From assembly GCA_963845665.1 (NCBI GenBank), contig CAWJTA010000003.1, positions 767,518 through 831,517 on the forward strand: DNA of 64,000 nt, given 5' to 3'. Origin of the DNA: an uncultured Verrucomicrobiae bacterium (GTDB taxonomy: Bacteria > Verrucomicrobiota > Verrucomicrobiia > Limisphaerales > UBA11358). The notes beneath the pieces are model-generated. The model worked only from the letters and a program-made list of their open reading frames with translations, was not told the origin of the DNA and made no database searches. Position numbers and translations under genes: made by a program. Shown here one piece after another: positions 6,843-14,100 of the stretch. Within the stretch, counting starts at the first letter, position 1; the number at the start of each line of letters is the position of its first letter.

Positions 6843-8573
6843 TCAATCGTCGGACATCAATGTTCCCTGCGCAGGTACTATGGGCTTTTCACCCGGCAGT
6901 TGCCGGAACGGGACGACGTTGCAGCGCTGCGCCCAGGCATCGTACATGCCCGACAAATCCCTGACTTTCTCCGGATAGAGCGCGGCCACGTTGGTCAACT
7001 CGGTCCGGTCGGTTTTCATATCGTAAAGTTCCCAGGGATGACCCTGGAGGGCGACGAGTTTCCATCGGTCCAATCTCACGGCGCGATTTCCCTCGTGCTC
7101 CCAAAAAATCGGGGCGCGATCCGGGCGATCGCGTCCCTCGAAAATGGGGAGGAGACTTTCGCCCTCGAGGGGCAAGAGGATATTACCCTGGTAACTTTCG
7201 GGATGCTGAATGCCGGCCACTTCCAGCATGGTGGCTTTGATATCGGTCACGTGGGCGAGTGCGGTGGACATGGCGCCGGTATTTTTAATCACCGTTGGCC
7301 AGCGCGCGATAAAGGGCACGGCGATGCCTCCTTCATGAGCAAAATGCTTGTAGAGCCGAAACGGCGTGGCACTGACGTTTGCCCAGGGGATGCCGTAGCT
7401 TTGCCATACATCGTTGGGACCGGCGAATACGGAATGGTTCTCGTTACCCGCCCATACACGCCTTCCGTCACGTGTCAGGCTGGGGACGTCATACCATTCA
7501 GGCATGATGTCCTCCGCACAAGCGCCGTTGTCTGAGAAGAAGATCACAAGCGTGTTGTCATCAATGCCCAATTCTTTTAATCGAGCCATGATTTGGCCAA
7601 CGCCGTCGTCGAGGTGTTCGACCATGGCGGCGTAGGTGGCCATGCGATTGGCCTGCCATGCTTTGTCCACGACATTGGTCCAGTCAGGCACGCGCGGGTC
7701 GCGTGGCGACAACCGCCAGGATTTGTCGATGATGCCCATCTTGATCTGACGCTGATAACGTCGGGCCCGAATGATGTCCCAGCCCGCCAGATAACTGGCA
7801 CGATATTTGGCGATGTCCTTTTCTGGAGCCTGCAGCGGCCAATGTGGAGCGGTATAAGCCACATACAGAAAGAATGGTTTGGCCGCTCCGGCATAGTGAT
7901 CAAGGTCGCCCAGGGCGTGATCCGTGATGACATCGGTATAATAGAAATTTGTGCCCGGCGCGCGAGTGGGCGTGTTGCCGTCCACGAGCGAAAACGGGTC
8001 ATAGTAGCTGGTCACGCCGTGGATGCTGCCGAAATAACTTTCGAAGCCACGCTGCATGGGCCAACTGTCTTTGGTGTCCCAGAACGGCACGTGGGACTGG
8101 AAATTTAACTGTTTCTTCCCGTCGAAATAGATGTGGCTGAGATGCCATTTGCCGACCATGGCGGTGTGGTAATCGCCGAGCCGCAGTTCCTCGGCAACGG
8201 TCAGGCAATTTCGATTGAGTTCGCCGCGATATCCGGGGATGCCACGGTCCTCCATCATGTCGCCCACACCGGTCTGTTGAGGATATAACCCAGTCAAAAA
8301 CGCGGCGCGGGAGGGACAGCAGCGCGGAGTCGTATAAAATTGCGTCAGCCGCAATCCCTGGGCGGCCATGCGGTCGAGGTTCGGCGTTGGGATTTCAGAA
8401 CCGTAACAACTCAAATCCGAATATCCGAGGTCGTCGGCGAGAATCACCACAATATTGGGCCGTGTCCTGACGGCCTCCGCCGCCCAGGTCCTGAGTGTCA
8501 ATCCAACGAATAAAACGAGGAACAATATCCATTTCCTGGCAAACGATAAGAGCGCGAACATTTCCTCAAACAT
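6843..8573 (-). CDS. Arylsulfatase (Cys-type formylglycine sulfatase, family S1)
   Basis: RPNIVVILADDLGYSD, CCPSRAAFLTG (CxPxR), GKWHL, FFSDNG, WEHEGNRAVR; signal-like N-terminus. Confidence 0.93.
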   Translation of the reverse strand: MFEEMFALLSFARKWILFLVLFVGLTLRTWAAEAVRTRPNIVVILADDLGYSDLSCYGSEIPTPNLDRMAAQGLRLTQFYTTPRCCPSRAAFLTGLYPQQTGVGDMMEDRGIPGYRGELNRNCLTVAEELRLGDYHTAMVGKWHLSHIYFDGKKQLNFQSHVPFWDTKDSWPMQRGFESYFGSIHGVTSYYDPFSLVDGNTPTRAPGTNFYYTDVITDHALGDLDHYAGAAKPFFLYVAYTAPHWPLQAPEKDIAKYRASYLAGWDIIRARRYQRQIKMGIIDKSWRLSPRDPRVPDWTNVVDKAWQANRMATYAAMVEHLDDGVGQIMARLKELGIDDNTLVIFFSDNGACAEDIMPEWYDVPSLTRDGRRVWAGNENHSVFAGPNDVWQSYGIPWANVSATPFRLYKHFAHEGGIAVPFIARWPTVIKNTGAMSTALAHVTDIKATMLEVAGIQHPESYQGNILLPLEGESLLPIFEGRDRPDRAPIFWEHEGNRAVRLDRWKLVALQGHPWELYDMKTDRTELTNVAALYPEKVRDLSGMYDAWAQRCNVVPFRQLPGEKPIVPAQGTLMSDD

Positions 8574-8799
8574 AGCGATTCAAGGAATGTTGAACTTTTG
8601 CGGCGTCCCTGCCAAGAACTGCGTTAAGACGCCAATGGACAGGGTTGCCTGAGCCCAGCGACACCTATTAAGCCCGAAACGTCAATAGGGAAAAAAAGAG
8701 GGGCACGGAATCTTTTGGAAACCGCGTAGCGGACTTCAAAACGGGAACTCCGACTTAATTTCGGTTTGCAGCGCGGATGCAGGGCATCCGGCTAAACAC

Positions 8800-9270
8800 C
8801 TATTGGGACTCAATCGAGCCGGCCAAAGTTCAAAGGGAACCTCAGCCGACTTTCCAGTCCCCTGATCGAACGCCAGGGGACGGTCCAGAAACACACAGCA
8901 GTAAACCCACGCGCTATCCAGGCACATTGGCCGACGGTTGCCCGATGTTGATTGTCCAACCCGGGACTCCAGTATTTTGCGGACGTGCGAATGGGGCGGA
9001 TGCTCCAAAGGTAGAACGTTCTGAAGTGATGCGACCGCAAGCTAAAAGGAGCCGGGGCCGATAGCAAGCCATCACGCTCGCGGCCCCGGCGTCGAAGGCG
9101 TGCGATCAACGACCGCTGGCGAGCTGGCTCAATCACATTTAGGGAGTCCTGGTGGATCCAGCTCAGACCGGGGTGTTCAAAACACCAGGGAATATGGTCT
9201 GGGTTGAATGAGGATCTCACGATTGATCGGCTCCAGTCGCAGCGCAGGCTCAGGTCGCCAGGGTCGAAAT
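8800..9270 (-). ncRNA. Candidate bridge/seek RNA region (structured 3' non-coding end of the IS110 element)
   Basis: 471-nt region downstream of the transposase with no convincing ORF and several perfect stems: 9051-9060/9081-9090 (10 bp), 8857-8864/8874-8881 (8 bp), 9121-9127/9158-9164 (7 bp), 9172-9177/9181-9186. Expression and boundaries not shown. Confidence 0.55.
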
Positions 9271-10347
9271 TTAGTTGCGTGTTATCGAAGCAGCCAGGCG
9301 CTGGGGATCAAAGACGGTTTTGCTCTTAAGCATGTAGTAAACCGAACGGGCCAGCTTGATGGCCAGAAGGGCGTTGGCCTTGAACTTGTTGCCGCCCATG
9401 CGGACCAGGAGGCGTTGATAGAGCGGGCCCATGAATGCCTGATCGCGTTTGGCAATGATGGCCGCCTCACCGAAGGCCCAGCGCAGATAGGGATTGCCCA
9501 GCTTATGGCCGCGCAGGCCCTTGATCTTGCCGGCTGAAGCGACGGTGCCCTTGACCAGGCGACAATAGCTCAGGAAGTCTTTGACTGTGGGGAATCGGTC
9601 GATGTCGCCAATTTCGTAGAGGAGCGTCAGACCCAGGTGCTTGCCAATGCCGGTGATGGTTTGCAGTAAAATATAATCGCGCTGAGCATGGACTTTGGTC
9701 AACCGTTCCAATTGATCATCCAGGATGGCGATTTGAGTATCGAAATGGCGGATGAGGGCGAACTGATTTTGGAGAGCTAGCTGGTAAACGCGGTTGGGTT
9801 CCTGAGCCAGCGCATGTTCCTGCCAACGGTCGCGGTTGGAGCAAGAGTTGGGGATGCGGTTGTGAGCCAGTTGATGGGATTGGACGCGGGTAATGAGTTC
9901 AGTACGGTCCCAAACGAAATGGAGACGCTGGCGCAAGAGAGCTCGCAGAGGCCGCTGGGCGGCGGGATAGACGTAGCTGGGTGGAATGAGATTGACACGC
10001 AGCAGTTGAGCGAGTTTTTCGGAATCAATGCGGTCATTTTTGTTTTTGCCGCCATGAATGGCCTTGAGGTAGAGGGCGTGAGCCAGGACGAAATGGATGC
10101 CGGCCTGGGCACAGGCGTCGGCGAGCCAATACCATCCGAACATGCATTCGGCACAGACGGTTAGGTCGTGGCGATAAGGGGCGACCAACTGCAGGAAAAA
10201 GTTGAAGTCATTGTTTCGGATATTGGTGTGGACCAGGATTTTTCCGGAACGATCCATGAGACAGACATACATTTGCCGGGAATGGAGATCGATTCCGCAG
10301 TTGAATTCGGTGGTGGAGGTGTAATACTTCATAACGTAATACTTCAT
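9271..10347 (-). CDS. IS110-family transposase/recombinase (DEDD RuvC-like domain plus C-terminal Tnp domain)
   Basis: GIDLH, CAEC, KNDRID (D-E-D-D); C-terminal ITGIG..EIGDIDRF..VASAGK (conserved Ser)..GNPYLRWAFGEAA. Start at ATG 10347 or 10332. Confidence 0.95.
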   Translation of the reverse strand: MKYYVMKYYTSTTEFNCGIDLHSRQMYVCLMDRSGKILVHTNIRNNDFNFFLQLVAPYRHDLTVCAECMFGWYWLADACAQAGIHFVLAHALYLKAIHGGKNKNDRIDSEKLAQLLRVNLIPPSYVYPAAQRPLRALLRQRLHFVWDRTELITRVQSHQLAHNRIPNSCSNRDRWQEHALAQEPNRVYQLALQNQFALIRHFDTQIAILDDQLERLTKVHAQRDYILLQTITGIGKHLGLTLLYEIGDIDRFPTVKDFLSYCRLVKGTVASAGKIKGLRGHKLGNPYLRWAFGEAAIIAKRDQAFMGPLYQRLLVRMGGNKFKANALLAIKLARSVYYMLKSKTVFDPQRLAASITRN

Positions 10348-10462
10348 GGTTGATGGGGTCGTCAGACCCCGTTGATTATGTTTACGCGGGGAGTGCTGGT
10401 AACACTCCCCGCCCTTCACCCAAGATGATAGCTCAAACCACCAAGGGCTTAACTGGGAGGAT

Positions 10463-10572
10463 CACATTTTATTTACATAGCATGCGCAACGCGCAACGAG
10501 ATTTGATTTTAGGGCGAAATGTGTGGTTTTATTGGTTTTTTTGAAGAGTTTACCGGTAGCGATGCGCAACGA
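10463..10572. repeat. 110-bp direct repeat, copy 1 (interrupted at its left edge by the IS110)
   Basis: Ungapped alignment to 10990-11099 with 10 mismatches; contains three gcgcaacg units. Confidence 0.9.
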
Positions 10573-10750
10573 GACGCGGTATTAGATTGGTGAATTTTTG
10601 GATGGGCGGACTTGTCGGAGCGCGATTATCCCGCAGTCGGGCATAGGCGTAAAGTTGAGCGCGTCGTGTTGGCAATGCTGGAAGATGCCGCAGATCAGTT
10701 TCGCGCTATCGCGCGGCTTCGCAGCACGCGGCTGAAATTTATCGGCTATC

Positions 10751-10813
10751 AACCCAGGGCGGCGCTCGCAGACTCGCTTGCCCTGGGCTATTACCTGTCG
10801 CCCTTCACAGGGC
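10751..10813. repeat. REP-like double hairpin (cccagggc...gccctggg, then gccct-tcac-agggc)
   Basis: 8-bp stem 10753-10760/10780-10787 followed by a 5-bp stem 10800-10813; intergenic. Confidence 0.6.
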
Positions 10814-10989
10814 TTTCAGTTTGCGGCGTCGCCGACAAATGAGTTACGGCACATAAAAAAAGAATGATAATTTTTAATCCTTTGCTGTTTTCACGCGAAC
10901 CAAAGCCTTGACTTGACGCGGCTGCGCAGTCACGGGACTGCTACGATGGGTGAGGATGAAAATGACTCCGCGCACCCCTGGGGGCTATA

Positions 10990-11099
10990 CACATTTTATT
11001 TACATAGGATGCGCAACGCGCAACGAGATTTGATTTTAGGGCGAAATGTATGGTTTTATTGGGGTTTTTGAATATTTTGGCGGCAGCTATGCGCAACGA
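10990..11099. repeat. 110-bp direct repeat, copy 2 (intact)
   Basis: About 91% identical to 10463-10572; immediately downstream of the A2M stop codon. Confidence 0.9.
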
Positions 11100-11103
11100 A
11101 GTC

Positions 11104-14100
11104 TTAAGGCGCCTTGTCTTCAACATTGACCCGAATTTCCGCGCTGTTGCAGCGAATTTCGGGCACGTACATCGCCCCGCCTACGACTGGCAGGGCATGG
11201 AATCGTCCAGGGGTTTCCGCGCGCATGTCATAGCGAAGCTCCCAAATTCCCTGCGGCAAATGATCCAGGAACAGCGCGACCTGCCGGTCGCGCAGTTCCT
11301 GATAGACCCAACTGGTGCGGCCGGTGTAATCGGAATCCTCTTGCGGTCGCGGCGCGGGAATTATGGGAATCAGCAATTCCTGGCCGATTTTCAATCTGGA
11401 AGGCATCACCGAGACGTTGGCTTCCTCGATGGCGCGCACGGAAATCGCATATTGCTTCGAGATCGCGGCGAGCGTATCGCCGGCCCGGATAACATAAAGC
11501 TCGTTCGTACCGGAAAGCCGTCTCGCTGCGGCTGCGGATTTAAGCTCGCTGGCATAGAGCGATTCGCCGCTGCGGATTTCGACCGTCTCGAATCCAGCGG
11601 GCTTTAAATCTTCAAACATGAGATAATCGTAATCGTTCTTTGCCTCGAGGGTCAGCACGGTTTCGATACGCTCGCCGCTTTTAACGGTCCCGCCGTCCGG
11701 GAGCGGTTCGCGGTCGTCCACGTATCCCTTAAGCAATGTTGGGCGCGGAACGAGCTTGTAATATTCGCGTTTTACGAAAATCTCGTTCCCGGCGGGTGCG
11801 ATCGGCTCTTCGGTGCTGAAAAAGGAGGCGTTAGCGGAAAAATACAACGGCCGGTCGCCGGCAGCCTCAACGATGCGAATTTCATTTGAGTCCTGAATCC
11901 ACTTTGGATCAATGGTGAACCGGCTCGGCGCGTTGAAAACGTCAGCGGGGCTAATGTGCTGTTGGGCTATTCGGGTGCCATTGACGAAAAGGCTGAATGT
12001 TGTGGCGCTTTGCAGCTCTCCGCTCACACGCAGGTAATCGTTCAGCGCCAGCACAGCGATGGCTGTATCGCGGGTATTGTTCCATTGCGCGCCGCGACGA
12101 TTTTTGACGAGCCAATTGGCCACCGGCTCAATCAACGCATTCGTCGGGTCAATCGCCAGGAGCGCGCGCAAGGCAAAGGCCGTCGCCTCAACGCCGCTAT
12201 CAGACCAATGCCAAAAGACGCCGTCATTGCCCCAATGCGCCGTGGCCATGACGGTTGGCGATGAGTTGGTCGATGACGAAGCATTCCCCATGAGGATGGA
12301 TTGGTCCGGATGCTCGTCACGAATGACGCCGTTTTCGAGATTGGCCGCCAGGATTTTGGCGCGGTCATCAAATCCGTACTCGTGTGCGCTCAGCGCGAGC
12401 AGGGCGCGCGTATAGGCATTGAGTTGGTCGCGGTTTTGCCAGAGGTTATCAAAGGCGGCCCGTTGAAATTTGTTGATTTTGCGCGAATGACACGACGCCA
12501 GCGCGTGCAGCATAAATGCCTGCATATCGTAATTCTCCTTTTCATCCACCAAATGCGAGTCGAGATACCTAATCCCACGCTGCAAGACATTGGGTTTGAG
12601 TTGAACGCCCGCCTCACGCGCCAGCGCCAGGCCCCAGAGCACATATGCGGTCATCCAATGGTCGCTGTCGTCGTCCTTCCACCAACCCCAACCACCGTCG
12701 TTATGTTGAAAATCATACAAACGATCCAGGCCGGCCCGGGTCATTTCGTCCATTTCATCAAGGCTCTTTTTGCCTTCCGGATGGGTTGCCGCAGCACTGT
12801 TGGTTTCAATGCCGCCGAACACGCGATCCATGGCGTCACCCGGCTGCAGGCCAAGATCGCGGAGTGTTTTGGCGGTGATCACCGTCGGCAAAAACCGGCT
12901 CATGGTTTGCTCGGTGCAACCGTAAGGATAATTGATTAAGTATGGCAACGCATCGAGCATCGTCACGGCCATACTGGGCGTGACCTGGACGGCAAGCGAA
13001 GTGGAATTCGGTTTGCGTTCGTCAGGCAGGACCAATTCCACCGTCGTTTCGTCGCATCGAGTCTTGCCGGATTTCGAGATGAATTTTTCGATGCCATGCT
13101 CGTATGCCGTGAACGAATTCTCCATCGCGTCCGCGTACTGATCACTTCGCGCCGTGACTTTTAAATTCACATCGCCGGGCGATTCAACCCTGGCTGTCCA
13201 ATCAGCGCGCGCCTGGCCATTGGGAGGAACGTCAAGTGTCTGGGTGTGAGTGGCGGACCGGGAGGTCCGCCCTACCATGCCGGAATCCTGCGCTACGTCC
13301 AGGCCACTGGCGTCGAGGGAGACTTTCGCTTCGAGTGGTTTGTCTGTGTTGTTGTTGACGACTGCGGAAATCGTGACCGTGTCGCCTGCCACAAAAAAGC
13401 GGGGTCCTTCAAGGCGCACGATGAGCGGTTTCCGCGTGCGAGTAGTCGTTTGGGCGATGCCAAATTGATTGGCTGTCGTCACCGCCCGCGCTGTGGCCCG
13501 CCAACTCGTGAGCGAATCCGGATAGGTGACCTTCACCATCGCCTCGCCGTTTTTATCTGTCATGACGTCCGGCTGCCAGAAAACCGTGGAACGGAAATCA
13601 CTGCGCACGACCACGGTTGGCTGTTCGCGTTCGTGTCCACCAGCGCCGCCAAAGCCGTTGTCAGCCAGTTTTTCCCTAAATAAACTGCCCATGACGGGGA
13701 TCCCCTCGACCATCGGCGATACAGGGCTGCCAGCCATCGCCCCATACGTTGTTTGGCGCCCCGCAAAGGAGCGTGTCGTGACATAGTCAAGTCCGATTGC
13801 AGACTGGCCGGGTTGCGGGGCCATCTTCATGTTCACATAGCCAACCACGCTTATATGTGGTTCGCCAAACGACATATCTTGCGCGCCGCCGCCGCCGCCA
13901 CCGCCTCCGGCATTTCCGGCAATGCCCGGCGTCATTCTCCCCAAGCGACTTTGTTCCTCCAGCCGTTCCTTCTCTTTGTCATCGATTAACTGGTTTTTCC
14001 ATTTCACGAGCCGTGTATAAGTCTTTTGGTTCATCGTGGACTGCGTTTGGATCTGCTGGTTGCGCTTGGTCCCAAAGAAAAACTCCCGGGGATCGCCCGC

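Follow-up and report, generated by a model that had tools for sequence, protein, structure and literature searches.

An IS110-family insertion sequence in a Verrucomicrobiae genome with a probable half-kilobase bridge (seek) RNA downstream of its recombinase gene

The locus and its insertion sequence

The DNA analysed here is a 64,000-nucleotide stretch (the window) from an uncultured Verrucomicrobiae bacterium (GenBank assembly GCA_963845665.1, contig CAWJTA010000003.1, positions 767,518 to 831,517 of the forward strand). An earlier note had flagged window positions 8800 to 9270 as a structured non-coding end that might specify the guide RNA of a transposable element. On one side of the flagged stretch is a sulfatase-like gene (6843-8573, minus strand), on the other a 358-aa open reading frame (10347-9271, minus strand). 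We find that the frame and the flagged stretch are parts of one insertion sequence of IS110/IS1111 type (8664..10462, minus strand; 1,799 bp without its core dinucleotide). The 607-nt region downstream of the recombinase gene very probably encodes an IS1111-type bridge (seek) RNA, transcribed in the direction of the gene. The sequences quoted in the earlier note all stand where it placed them.

A search of the same genome with window positions 8700-10560 returned 57 matches, seven of full length (99-100% identity) and 50 confined to the final ~100 bases of the query. Each full-length match starts at base 1 of the query, so the element reaches further left than had been assumed. Aligned with their flanks, the seven share the ends 8664 and 10462 and the length of 1,799 bp, and they differ from one another at 0-17 positions. 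Seven near-identical copies at the same kind of site are a sign of activity. The non-coding region 3′ of the transposase gene measures 607 nt (9270 to 8664) against 115 nt on the 5′ side, and a longer non-coding region downstream of the gene is a mark of IS1111 elements. The previous estimate of ~470 nt had a wrong left boundary, the end being 8664 and not ~8797. The statement that the region holds no credible open reading frame stands: three open frames are present without a Pfam match at E<=1, and the longest stop-free stretch shifts strand and frame among 21 aligned tails.

Read in the orientation of the transposase, all seven copies have the form ...AAATG|TG|element...|TG|T..., with a right flank that starts TCG in four copies, TAT in two and TCA in one. 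In related elements the left junction is ...T|TG|ATACTCC and the right one ...TAGG|TG|TTAGG. Because TG is all that the two junctions have in common in these relatives, we assign the core dinucleotide as TG, at 10463..10464 for the left end and 8662..8663 for the right end (both minus strand). Insertion beside AAATG|TG in each of the seven, with TG at both junctions, shows the site specificity, short shared core and lack of a long target duplication that define IS110 insertion.

The DNA at the left junction is the left edge of an ~89-bp repeat (CACATTTTATTT..., 10463..10551, plus strand), the part of the query to which the 50 further genome matches belong. We aligned 63 repeat copies at the same first base (CACATTTTATTT...), and the element lies exactly at that edge. 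These copies came from 68 BLAST rows, five of which were dropped as their matches started too far inside the repeat. The full repeat adjoins four of the element copies and a short repeat-like stretch adjoins the other three; an intact, unoccupied target repeat is found nearby at 10990-11078. The repeat as a whole (CACATTTTATTT...AAAATGTG..., ~60 copies) comes in two sequence subtypes, and its copies often form same-strand arrays with a spacing of 250-400 bp (for example C2 752348-753191 and C2 914978-915621).

Sub-terminal inverted repeats had been reported missing. They are present as an 8-bp pair, TTAAGCCC (10445..10452, minus strand) on the left and its reverse-complement match GGGCTTAA (8668..8675, minus strand) on the right, located 10 and 4 nt from the termini and of a length within the 7-17 bp of the IS1111 group. 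The AAGCCC of the left repeat is kept in 30/30 aligned relatives, the GGGCTT columns of the right one are invariant among the 21 aligned sequences of alignment A1 (below), and sub-terminal repeats of 9-12 bp occur in the distant relatives L086, L092 and L087. The right end also carries a -35-like TTGACG (8680..8685, minus strand), with TTGAC kept in 20/21 aligned sequences. On the circle junction, TTGACG (8685-8680) and GATCCT (10463-10458), separated by a 17-nt spacer, would form a promoter, an arrangement described for IS1111-type elements (PMC11187229).

The gene itself (9271..10347, minus strand) encodes a DEDD recombinase/transposase of 358 aa when read from the first ATG; the true start may be the second in-frame ATG, at 10332. 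The protein matches PF01548 (E 9e-18, 64.9 bits, cut-off 29), PF02371 (E 2e-17, 63.8 bits, cut-off 21.3) and the NCBIfam model NF033542, ‘IS110 family RNA-guided transposase’ (205 bits, cut-off 140). Its sole relatives of solved structure in the Protein Data Bank (PDB) are the transposases of IS621 (E 3.6e-8, over the C-terminal half only) and ISCro4 (2.8e-6). Judged by these matches, the recombinase is a member of the IS110 family in the broad sense, with predicted N-terminal DEDD/RuvC-like and C-terminal Transposase_20 domains.

Placement within the family is less simple. IS1111 transposases of 330-350 aa carry the motif GL-P----S(t)G, and the characterised elements have it (PMC11187229); here the corresponding stretch is RLVKGTVASAG and the length is 353-358 aa. 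The RLVK....SAG variant recurs in eight of nine relatives examined, down to 40% identity; the ninth, L039, was displayed from the wrong protein region. A signature of the clade, SY(C/S/A)RL(V/I)(K/R)....SAGK in place of G(L)-P....S(t)G (residues ~290-305, window 9440-9480), is kept from 90% to 40% identity. Plasmid and PDB searches placed the recombinase in neither the IS1111 nor the IS110 subgroup, and its best plasmid relatives (44-46% identity) are annotated merely as ‘IS110 family’. We describe the element as one that would work like an IS1111-type element.

Relatives and their insertion sites

A protein scan with one genome per species yielded 67 related loci (L numbers). Most come from metagenome-assembled genomes of Verrucomicrobiae/Limisphaerales and have 64-90% protein identity, and a few distant loci at 40-46% come from genomes under the labels Gemmataceae, Hahellaceae, Krumholzibacteriia and Aegiribacteria. 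At the DNA level, the element can be aligned over its full length, non-coding tail included, with ~70% identity. Distant members also have long tails, of ~480-490 nt in L086 and L087 and ~1,060 nt in L092 (Gemmataceae), where ~540 nt (L092:3545-4082) lie between the stop codon and the start of the target module described below. On one contig, four copies lie within 21 kb (the context of L041-L044).

Most relatives are inserted at attC-like sites, in which GCCTAAC is followed by an imperfect palindrome of ~85 nt and by G|TTAGGC (L039, L043, L055, L053, L090 and others), and the insertions fall exactly at the G|TT of the last box. We liken these to attC sites by the consensus boxes. An IS1111-attC group is reportedly known from work by Tetu & Holmes in 2008 and Post & Hall in 2009. 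Most relatives resemble that group in their choice of site. The window’s element has exchanged that target for the edge of a different repeat, with its guides altered to suit.

A conserved structure downstream of the recombinase gene

Our first set held 40 distinct full copies and the window’s element, 33 of them with distinct tails; L059, L062 and L068, which are divergent or truncated, were left out of folding. Alignment A1 consists of 20 representatives of <95% identity and the window (21 sequences), and alignment A2 covers the first (target) module alone. RNAalifold predicted 119 pairs on A1, 58 of which stay paired through changes on both sides. Over 124 pairs (the 119 predicted and five added in the wrong register), 92.6% of cells are paired compared with 82.9% in shuffles, and 61 pairs changed on both sides, against 33.8 +/- 2.8 in shuffles (0/500 as high) and 14-30 with partners slid by 1-3 columns. 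The 43 pairs of A2 are paired in 94.8% of cells, and 24 of them changed on both sides against 10.8 +/- 1.8 in shuffles. All five structure measures lie above 500/500 shuffles and above every slid control. On the transposase-sense strand, paired cells hold 302 G.U against 38 A.C, which points to this strand as the one that folds, although prediction of the fold on this strand tilts the count in its favour.

The predicted RNA structure spans ~533 nt (8734..9266, minus strand, as are all helices below) and comprises a target-binding module, a linker hairpin and a donor-binding module. The target-binding module (9109..9268; single-sequence fold z = -3.3) is closed by stem P1 (9266-9245 with 9131-9111), followed by an internal loop with both target guides and then by helices P2 to P5. 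P2 pairs UGGAGCC with GGACUCC (9235-9229 with 9149-9142). P3 (9220-9207 with 9163-9152) has 11 pairs, seven with compensatory change, and P4 (9201-9196 with 9169-9164) has five pairs, three changed on both sides; P5 (9186-9182 with 9177-9173) also has five, four changed on both sides. The linker hairpin between the modules (9048..9094) shows compensatory changes as well, and its complete absence from L053, L055 and L056 marks it as dispensable in some relatives.

The donor-binding module (8734..9026) is closed by the long-range stems P6 (9026-9017 with 8743-8734; 5/6 pairs with compensatory change) and P7 (9006-8996 with 8754-8744). Inside it lie the branch P8/P9 (8995-8906), the hairpin P12 (8794-8769) and a short helix GGAC/GUCC (8886-8883 with 8809-8806), which is 100% paired and encloses the hairpins P10 (8883-8854) and P11 (8851-8817). 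Both strands of the short helix have changed together in L049 (GGGU/ACCC) and L038 (GGAG/CUCC). A possible alternative pairing of GUUUC with GAAAU (8762-8758), in invariant columns, appeared in the first fold and is absent from the second. Two of the seven genome copies, L004 and L007, have a substitution cluster in common (9211-9224, 9097-9100) that affects the 5′ strand of P3 and leaves the partner strand unchanged; it may reflect decay or an alternative pairing.

Four of the five stems listed in the earlier note are conserved in this alignment. They are 9164-9169/9196-9201 (97% of cells paired), 9172-9177/9181-9186 (91%), 8857-8864/8874-8881 (nine pairs, 89% paired, nine changed on both sides) and 9051-9060/9081-9090, the arms of the linker hairpin that three relatives are missing. 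The fifth, 9121-9127/9158-9164, had been drawn as the stem closing the guide loop. It is paired in 35% of cells over the 21 sequences with no compensatory change, is a perfect 7-bp complement only in the window’s element, and has arms that each pair with other partners in the conserved fold.

A covariance model of the target module (R1), built from homologous 3′ ends as the earlier note had proposed, matches exactly the seven insertion sequence copies in the genome. It also matches 51/67 related loci at E<=1e-14, always on the transposase strand and just past the gene, and L092-L094 at 2e-5 to 9e-5. No R1 match was obtained at 13/67 loci, mostly loci with only part of the transposase gene. With filters off, L085-L087 gave only weak matches (E 0.005-0.08); their modules are nonetheless visible by eye. 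In a sample of the class, R1 matched 2/151 genomes, G000 included, a patchy distribution as expected for a mobile element.

Target guides that follow the insertion site

Two segments of the internal loop match the DNA on either side of the insertion point. The right target guide, GCGAC (9236..9240, minus strand), is the complement of the top strand G|TCGC (core G and right flank) and stands directly 5′ of P2. The left target guide, AAAUGUG (9134..9140, minus strand), has the sequence of the top strand, would accordingly pair with the bottom one, and includes the core UG; it occupies the 3′ side of the loop as CU-AAAUGUG-AU (9142-9132). AAATGTG equals the left flank plus core in 7/7 genome copies, with 8 nt matching in two. 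For the window’s element, the matches amount to 7-8 positions on the left and 4-5 on the right.

At the right guide position, relatives carry CCTAAC or TCTAAC and have flanks G|TTAGG or G|TTAGA, and L071-L073 carry CGGACAGAC with flank GTCTGTCCG, a match of 9/9. At the left position, most relatives have GATTTG (own left flank GCGATTTG), L053 has CGACTTG (GGCGACTTG), L078 has CGCGGTG (AGCGCGGTG) and L037 has GCGTCTTG (AGCGTCTTG). Both target guides change in step with the flanks in relatives that insert elsewhere. In the 39 copies that we tabulated, the right guide matches its own flank over at least 5 contiguous bases in 34; the left guide does so over at least 6 in 14, another 13 are interrupted by one C/T mismatch (guide GATTTG, flank GACTTG), and the others match more poorly. 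Matrices of guide against flank are diagonal across six target classes.

The closest relative, L046 (90% protein identity), lies on a 1.6-kb contig without flanks. At L046:1121-1274, CACACAC stands before CUGGAGCC and AAAAAUG before AUUGGG. These putative guides differ from those of the window’s element and would predict AAAAA|TG|TGTGTG as the target, which resembles the other arm of the window’s target repeat.

The earlier note had pointed to three short sequence matches as guide segments, and one of them is sound. Its nonamer atcacattt (9132-9140, identical to 10461-10469) falls where relatives carry the segment that matches their own left flank; since AAATGTG tracks left flanks, the nonamer is a genuine guide together with two bases that match the first two of the element. 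The heptamer gaggatc (9210-9216), taken for a match to the element end, is a strand of helix P3 and does not follow the element end in relatives. The match of gctaaa (9041-9046) to a supposed target flank (8791-8796) is void because the boundary was wrong: the element continues to 8664 and both sites are internal to it. The central idea, that guide segments to target and donor are encoded downstream of the transposase, is the part that held.

The two target guides have the order typical of IS1111 guide RNAs, with the right guide (9240-9236) 5′ of the left (9140-9134). They also share the general features of an IS621-type bridge RNA, namely a target loop with guides to both strands that overlap at the core.

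Donor guides

In the donor module, the segment AAUAGGUG (8797..8804, minus strand) is identical to the right end of the element plus core (AATAGG|TG). It lies in the multi-loop, 2 nt past GUCC, and we call it the left donor guide. Neither its ATAGGTG nor the element end varies among the 21 aligned sequences, so the close family is uninformative here. The distant relatives, at 40-46% protein identity, are not. L087 has ATATGTG and the right end CATATG|TG, L085 has ATAAGTG and CATAAGG, L092 has TTGAGCTG and ATTGAGC, and L086 has ATAGGTG and CATAGG|TG. It is well supported that the left donor guide tracks four different right ends. The covariation of loop bases with target and donor across homologs, a check proposed in the earlier note, is seen for both target guides and for this donor guide. 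In L038, L040, L041, L044 and L092-L094 the right junction reads GG, with TG at the left junction and in the left donor guide, so the first core base differs between the junctions in those copies.

A candidate right donor guide, GUGUUUC (8888..8894, minus strand), stands directly 5′ of GGAC, the position that corresponds to that of the right target guide. Most relatives have GAGUUUC there, which pairs with G|ATACTC at 6/7 positions with one U.T, and AUGAUUUUC in L092 pairs with G|ATAATCAT at 8/9 with the same U.T. GUGUUUC (8894-8888) is probably the right donor guide. Mutual information between columns of the left end and of the RNA was dominated by relatedness and did not locate this guide.

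Two other segments were considered and rejected. GAGUCC, beside the left donor guide, was tried as the right donor guide and proved to be the 3′ strand of the GGAC/GUCC helix. AUUAAGUC (8760-8753), tried as a guide to the sub-terminal repeats, does not covary with either end and is partly paired in P7. The segment has the form AUUAAGCC in most relatives; it is similar to the left sub-terminal repeat and complements the right.

Neighbouring features

A hairpin in the 5′ leader, GCGGGGAGTG...CACTCCCCGC (10386-10412), lies just before the start codon and is kept in relatives, with apparent compensatory changes by eye (AGTG/CACT versus AGCGC/GCGCT). It may control translation. The right end of the element is 90 nt upstream of the start of the 576-aa sulfatase-like gene (intervening positions 8574-8663), in the same orientation. 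We take this gene for a sulfatase from the CxPxR motif visible in its translation; read-through or the outward-facing TTGACG could affect it. Between two target repeat copies, and overlapping the end of a 76-aa open frame, is an Acido-Lenti-1-like motif (RF01687, 10753-10814) that scores 34 bits, under the gathering score of 37. RF01687 has 40 matches in the genome at E<=0.001, seven of them above the cut-off, and several lie <=1 kb from target repeats.

Discussion

The structure downstream of the recombinase gene is conserved with compensatory changes, and its guide segments are in step with target and donor DNA across relatives. In the mechanism that we propose, the RNA would be made as one molecule with the end positions given above and bound by the recombinase. 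Within the target module (~9268-9109), GCGAC would pair with the top strand right of the cut and AAAUGUG with the bottom strand left of it, so that together they would read ...AAATG|TG|TCG..., the edge of the repeat that has ~60 copies in the genome. Within the donor module (~9026-8734), the multi-loop would present AAUAGGUG (8804-8797) to the right end and core, and probably GUGUUUC to the left end. The RNA-bound recombinase would bring the joined ends of the circular element to the target, with recombination at the TG core.

Several observations weigh against this model. The right donor guide is weak: it pairs at only 4/7 positions in the window’s element, where the left end is ATCCTCC (the reason we grade it as probable), its U.T mismatch is conserved, and within the close family it does not covary. 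Pairing with the right flank is limited to 2-3 bases in 3/7 genome copies. Most relatives share one target class, so the counts of matching copies are not independent, and the evidence comes from the few retargeted lineages, ~5 independent events. A scan of 8500-11200 against Rfam at E<=1 gave no match in the element (the Acido-Lenti-1-like match lies outside it), and no terminator-like site was found at the presumed 3′ end of the RNA. In RLVKGTVASAG, the L and S of the motif common to the IS110 and IS1111 families are retained and the G and P are absent. Finally, we infer from genomic sequence that the transcript exists, where it ends and how it is processed.

The closest known systems are the seekRNAs of ISEc11, ISKpn4, ISPst6, ISPa11 and ISPa25, with short forms of 70-100 nt and long forms of 145-170 nt (Siddiquee et al. 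2024, PMC11187229). As in those IS1111 elements, the RNA here would come from the long non-coding region that follows the transposase gene, the complement of the top strand precedes that of the bottom strand, and the matches overlap where the element inserts. Natural retargeting is seen among close relatives, with changes confined to the guide segments, and the sub-terminal inverted repeats, the presumptive junction promoter and the use of repeats and attC sites as targets are shared as well (PMC11187229). The exact site differs: the attC-targeting relatives insert at the G|TTAGGC box, and ISKpn4 and ISPst6 are tabulated at the AA*CG position. In size the difference is large, the target module alone being ~160 nt and the conserved structure ~533 nt, with conserved helices of ~95 nt (target) and ~85 nt (donor) between the two guides of each loop.

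The element also shares with IS621 its target and donor modules, a guide for each strand (the right donor guide here being a probable one), the overlap at a core dinucleotide, and a recombinase of DEDD type with a C-terminal serine (Durrant et al. 2024, PMC11208160). A second report on the IS621 bridge RNA is Hiraizumi et al. 2024 (PMC11208158). Unlike here, the IS621 RNA is encoded upstream of the gene and is ~150-250 nt long, and each of its loops has the left guide 5′ and the right guide 3′, the reverse of our order (PMC11208160). The donor guides in the present element sit in a multi-loop, as do the donor-binding nucleotides of many IS1111 orthologues (PMC11208160). These comparisons settle the earlier suggestion of a distinct guide architecture in part: size and added helices bear it out, and the logic, with its guide order and multi-loop donor guides, had already been described for IS1111-type elements. 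The core of IS621 is CT; the core here is TG.

The claim that the region is longer than the characterised guide RNAs is upheld, at ~533 nt against ~150-250 nt (PMC11208160) and 70-170 nt (PMC11187229). The RNA would be two to three times larger than these, an outlier status that rests on the lengths quoted in the texts. Alternatives to a single bipartite guide were also considered.

One alternative, which we regard as improbable though the best of those considered, is that the modules are made or processed as two RNAs, a natural split bridge RNA, instead of one molecule of ~530 nt. The stretch that joins them is variable and its hairpin is absent in L053, L055 and L056, and the target module of L092 starts far beyond the stop codon. 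Short and long seekRNA forms co-exist in known elements (PMC11187229), and engineered split guides are reported to work (review, PMC13604230). Against this, in the close family the two modules are neighbours in every case and never change order.

Still less probable in our estimation is that guiding falls to the first module alone (~160 nt, 9268-9109), which would be a seekRNA in the narrow sense. The 290 nt of the distal domain would then have another role, for instance as a structure of the 3′ untranslated region (UTR), as a scaffold for protein or as an element for processing or stability, and the ends would be recognised by protein through the sub-terminal inverted repeats. An 82-nt seekRNA of ISEc11 with target matches only sufficed for movement, and the long form’s role is open (PMC11187229); the weak right donor guide and deletable linker hairpin would fit. 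However, across distant relatives AAUAGGUG and its counterparts keep step with four different right ends, and the 8/9 match of AUGAUUUUC in L092 is to that element’s own left end. The distal domain also mirrors the first module, each having a guide, UGGAC ... GUCC, two nucleotides, and a guide with UG.

That the region is a conserved 3′ UTR structure or DNA-level feature with no guiding role is very improbable: matches of 5-8 nt do arise by chance, and two of the three first proposed were not guides, but the matches described here keep to constant alignment positions and, in several lineages, vary together with the flanks (in one case 9/9), and element ends and donor guide covary over four states, which strongly disfavours chance.

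With a single bipartite bridge RNA as the preferred reading, the element represents a mechanism already known since 2024, in a large and well-resolved variant, and not a new one. Comparative data alone suffice to locate all four guide positions, the right donor guide as a probable one. The element and its relatives are a clear case of natural retargeting, in which relatives occupy attC-like sites, the window’s element occupies a genome-specific repeat, and only the guide segments changed. For annotation, the analysis provides the true ends of the element and explains the insertion 90 nt upstream of the sulfatase-like gene.

The RNA scaffold far exceeds those used so far in programmable recombination. 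If the added helices are functional, they would be informative on the shares of scaffold and guide in a bridge RNA and on the natural separability of its target and donor modules. It is tempting to speculate, and we hold this as a tentative idea only, that a deep-branching clade of the IS110 family with RLVK....SAG, found at loci of Verrucomicrobiota, Planctomycetota (Gemmataceae), Hahellaceae, Krumholzibacteriia and Aegiribacteria, uses a bipartite guide of about half a kilobase, in which 85-95 nt of conserved helices interrupt each loop and the modules may act as separate RNAs. If so, the extra helices would be a layer of scaffold or control that is absent from IS621 and from the characterised IS1111 elements.

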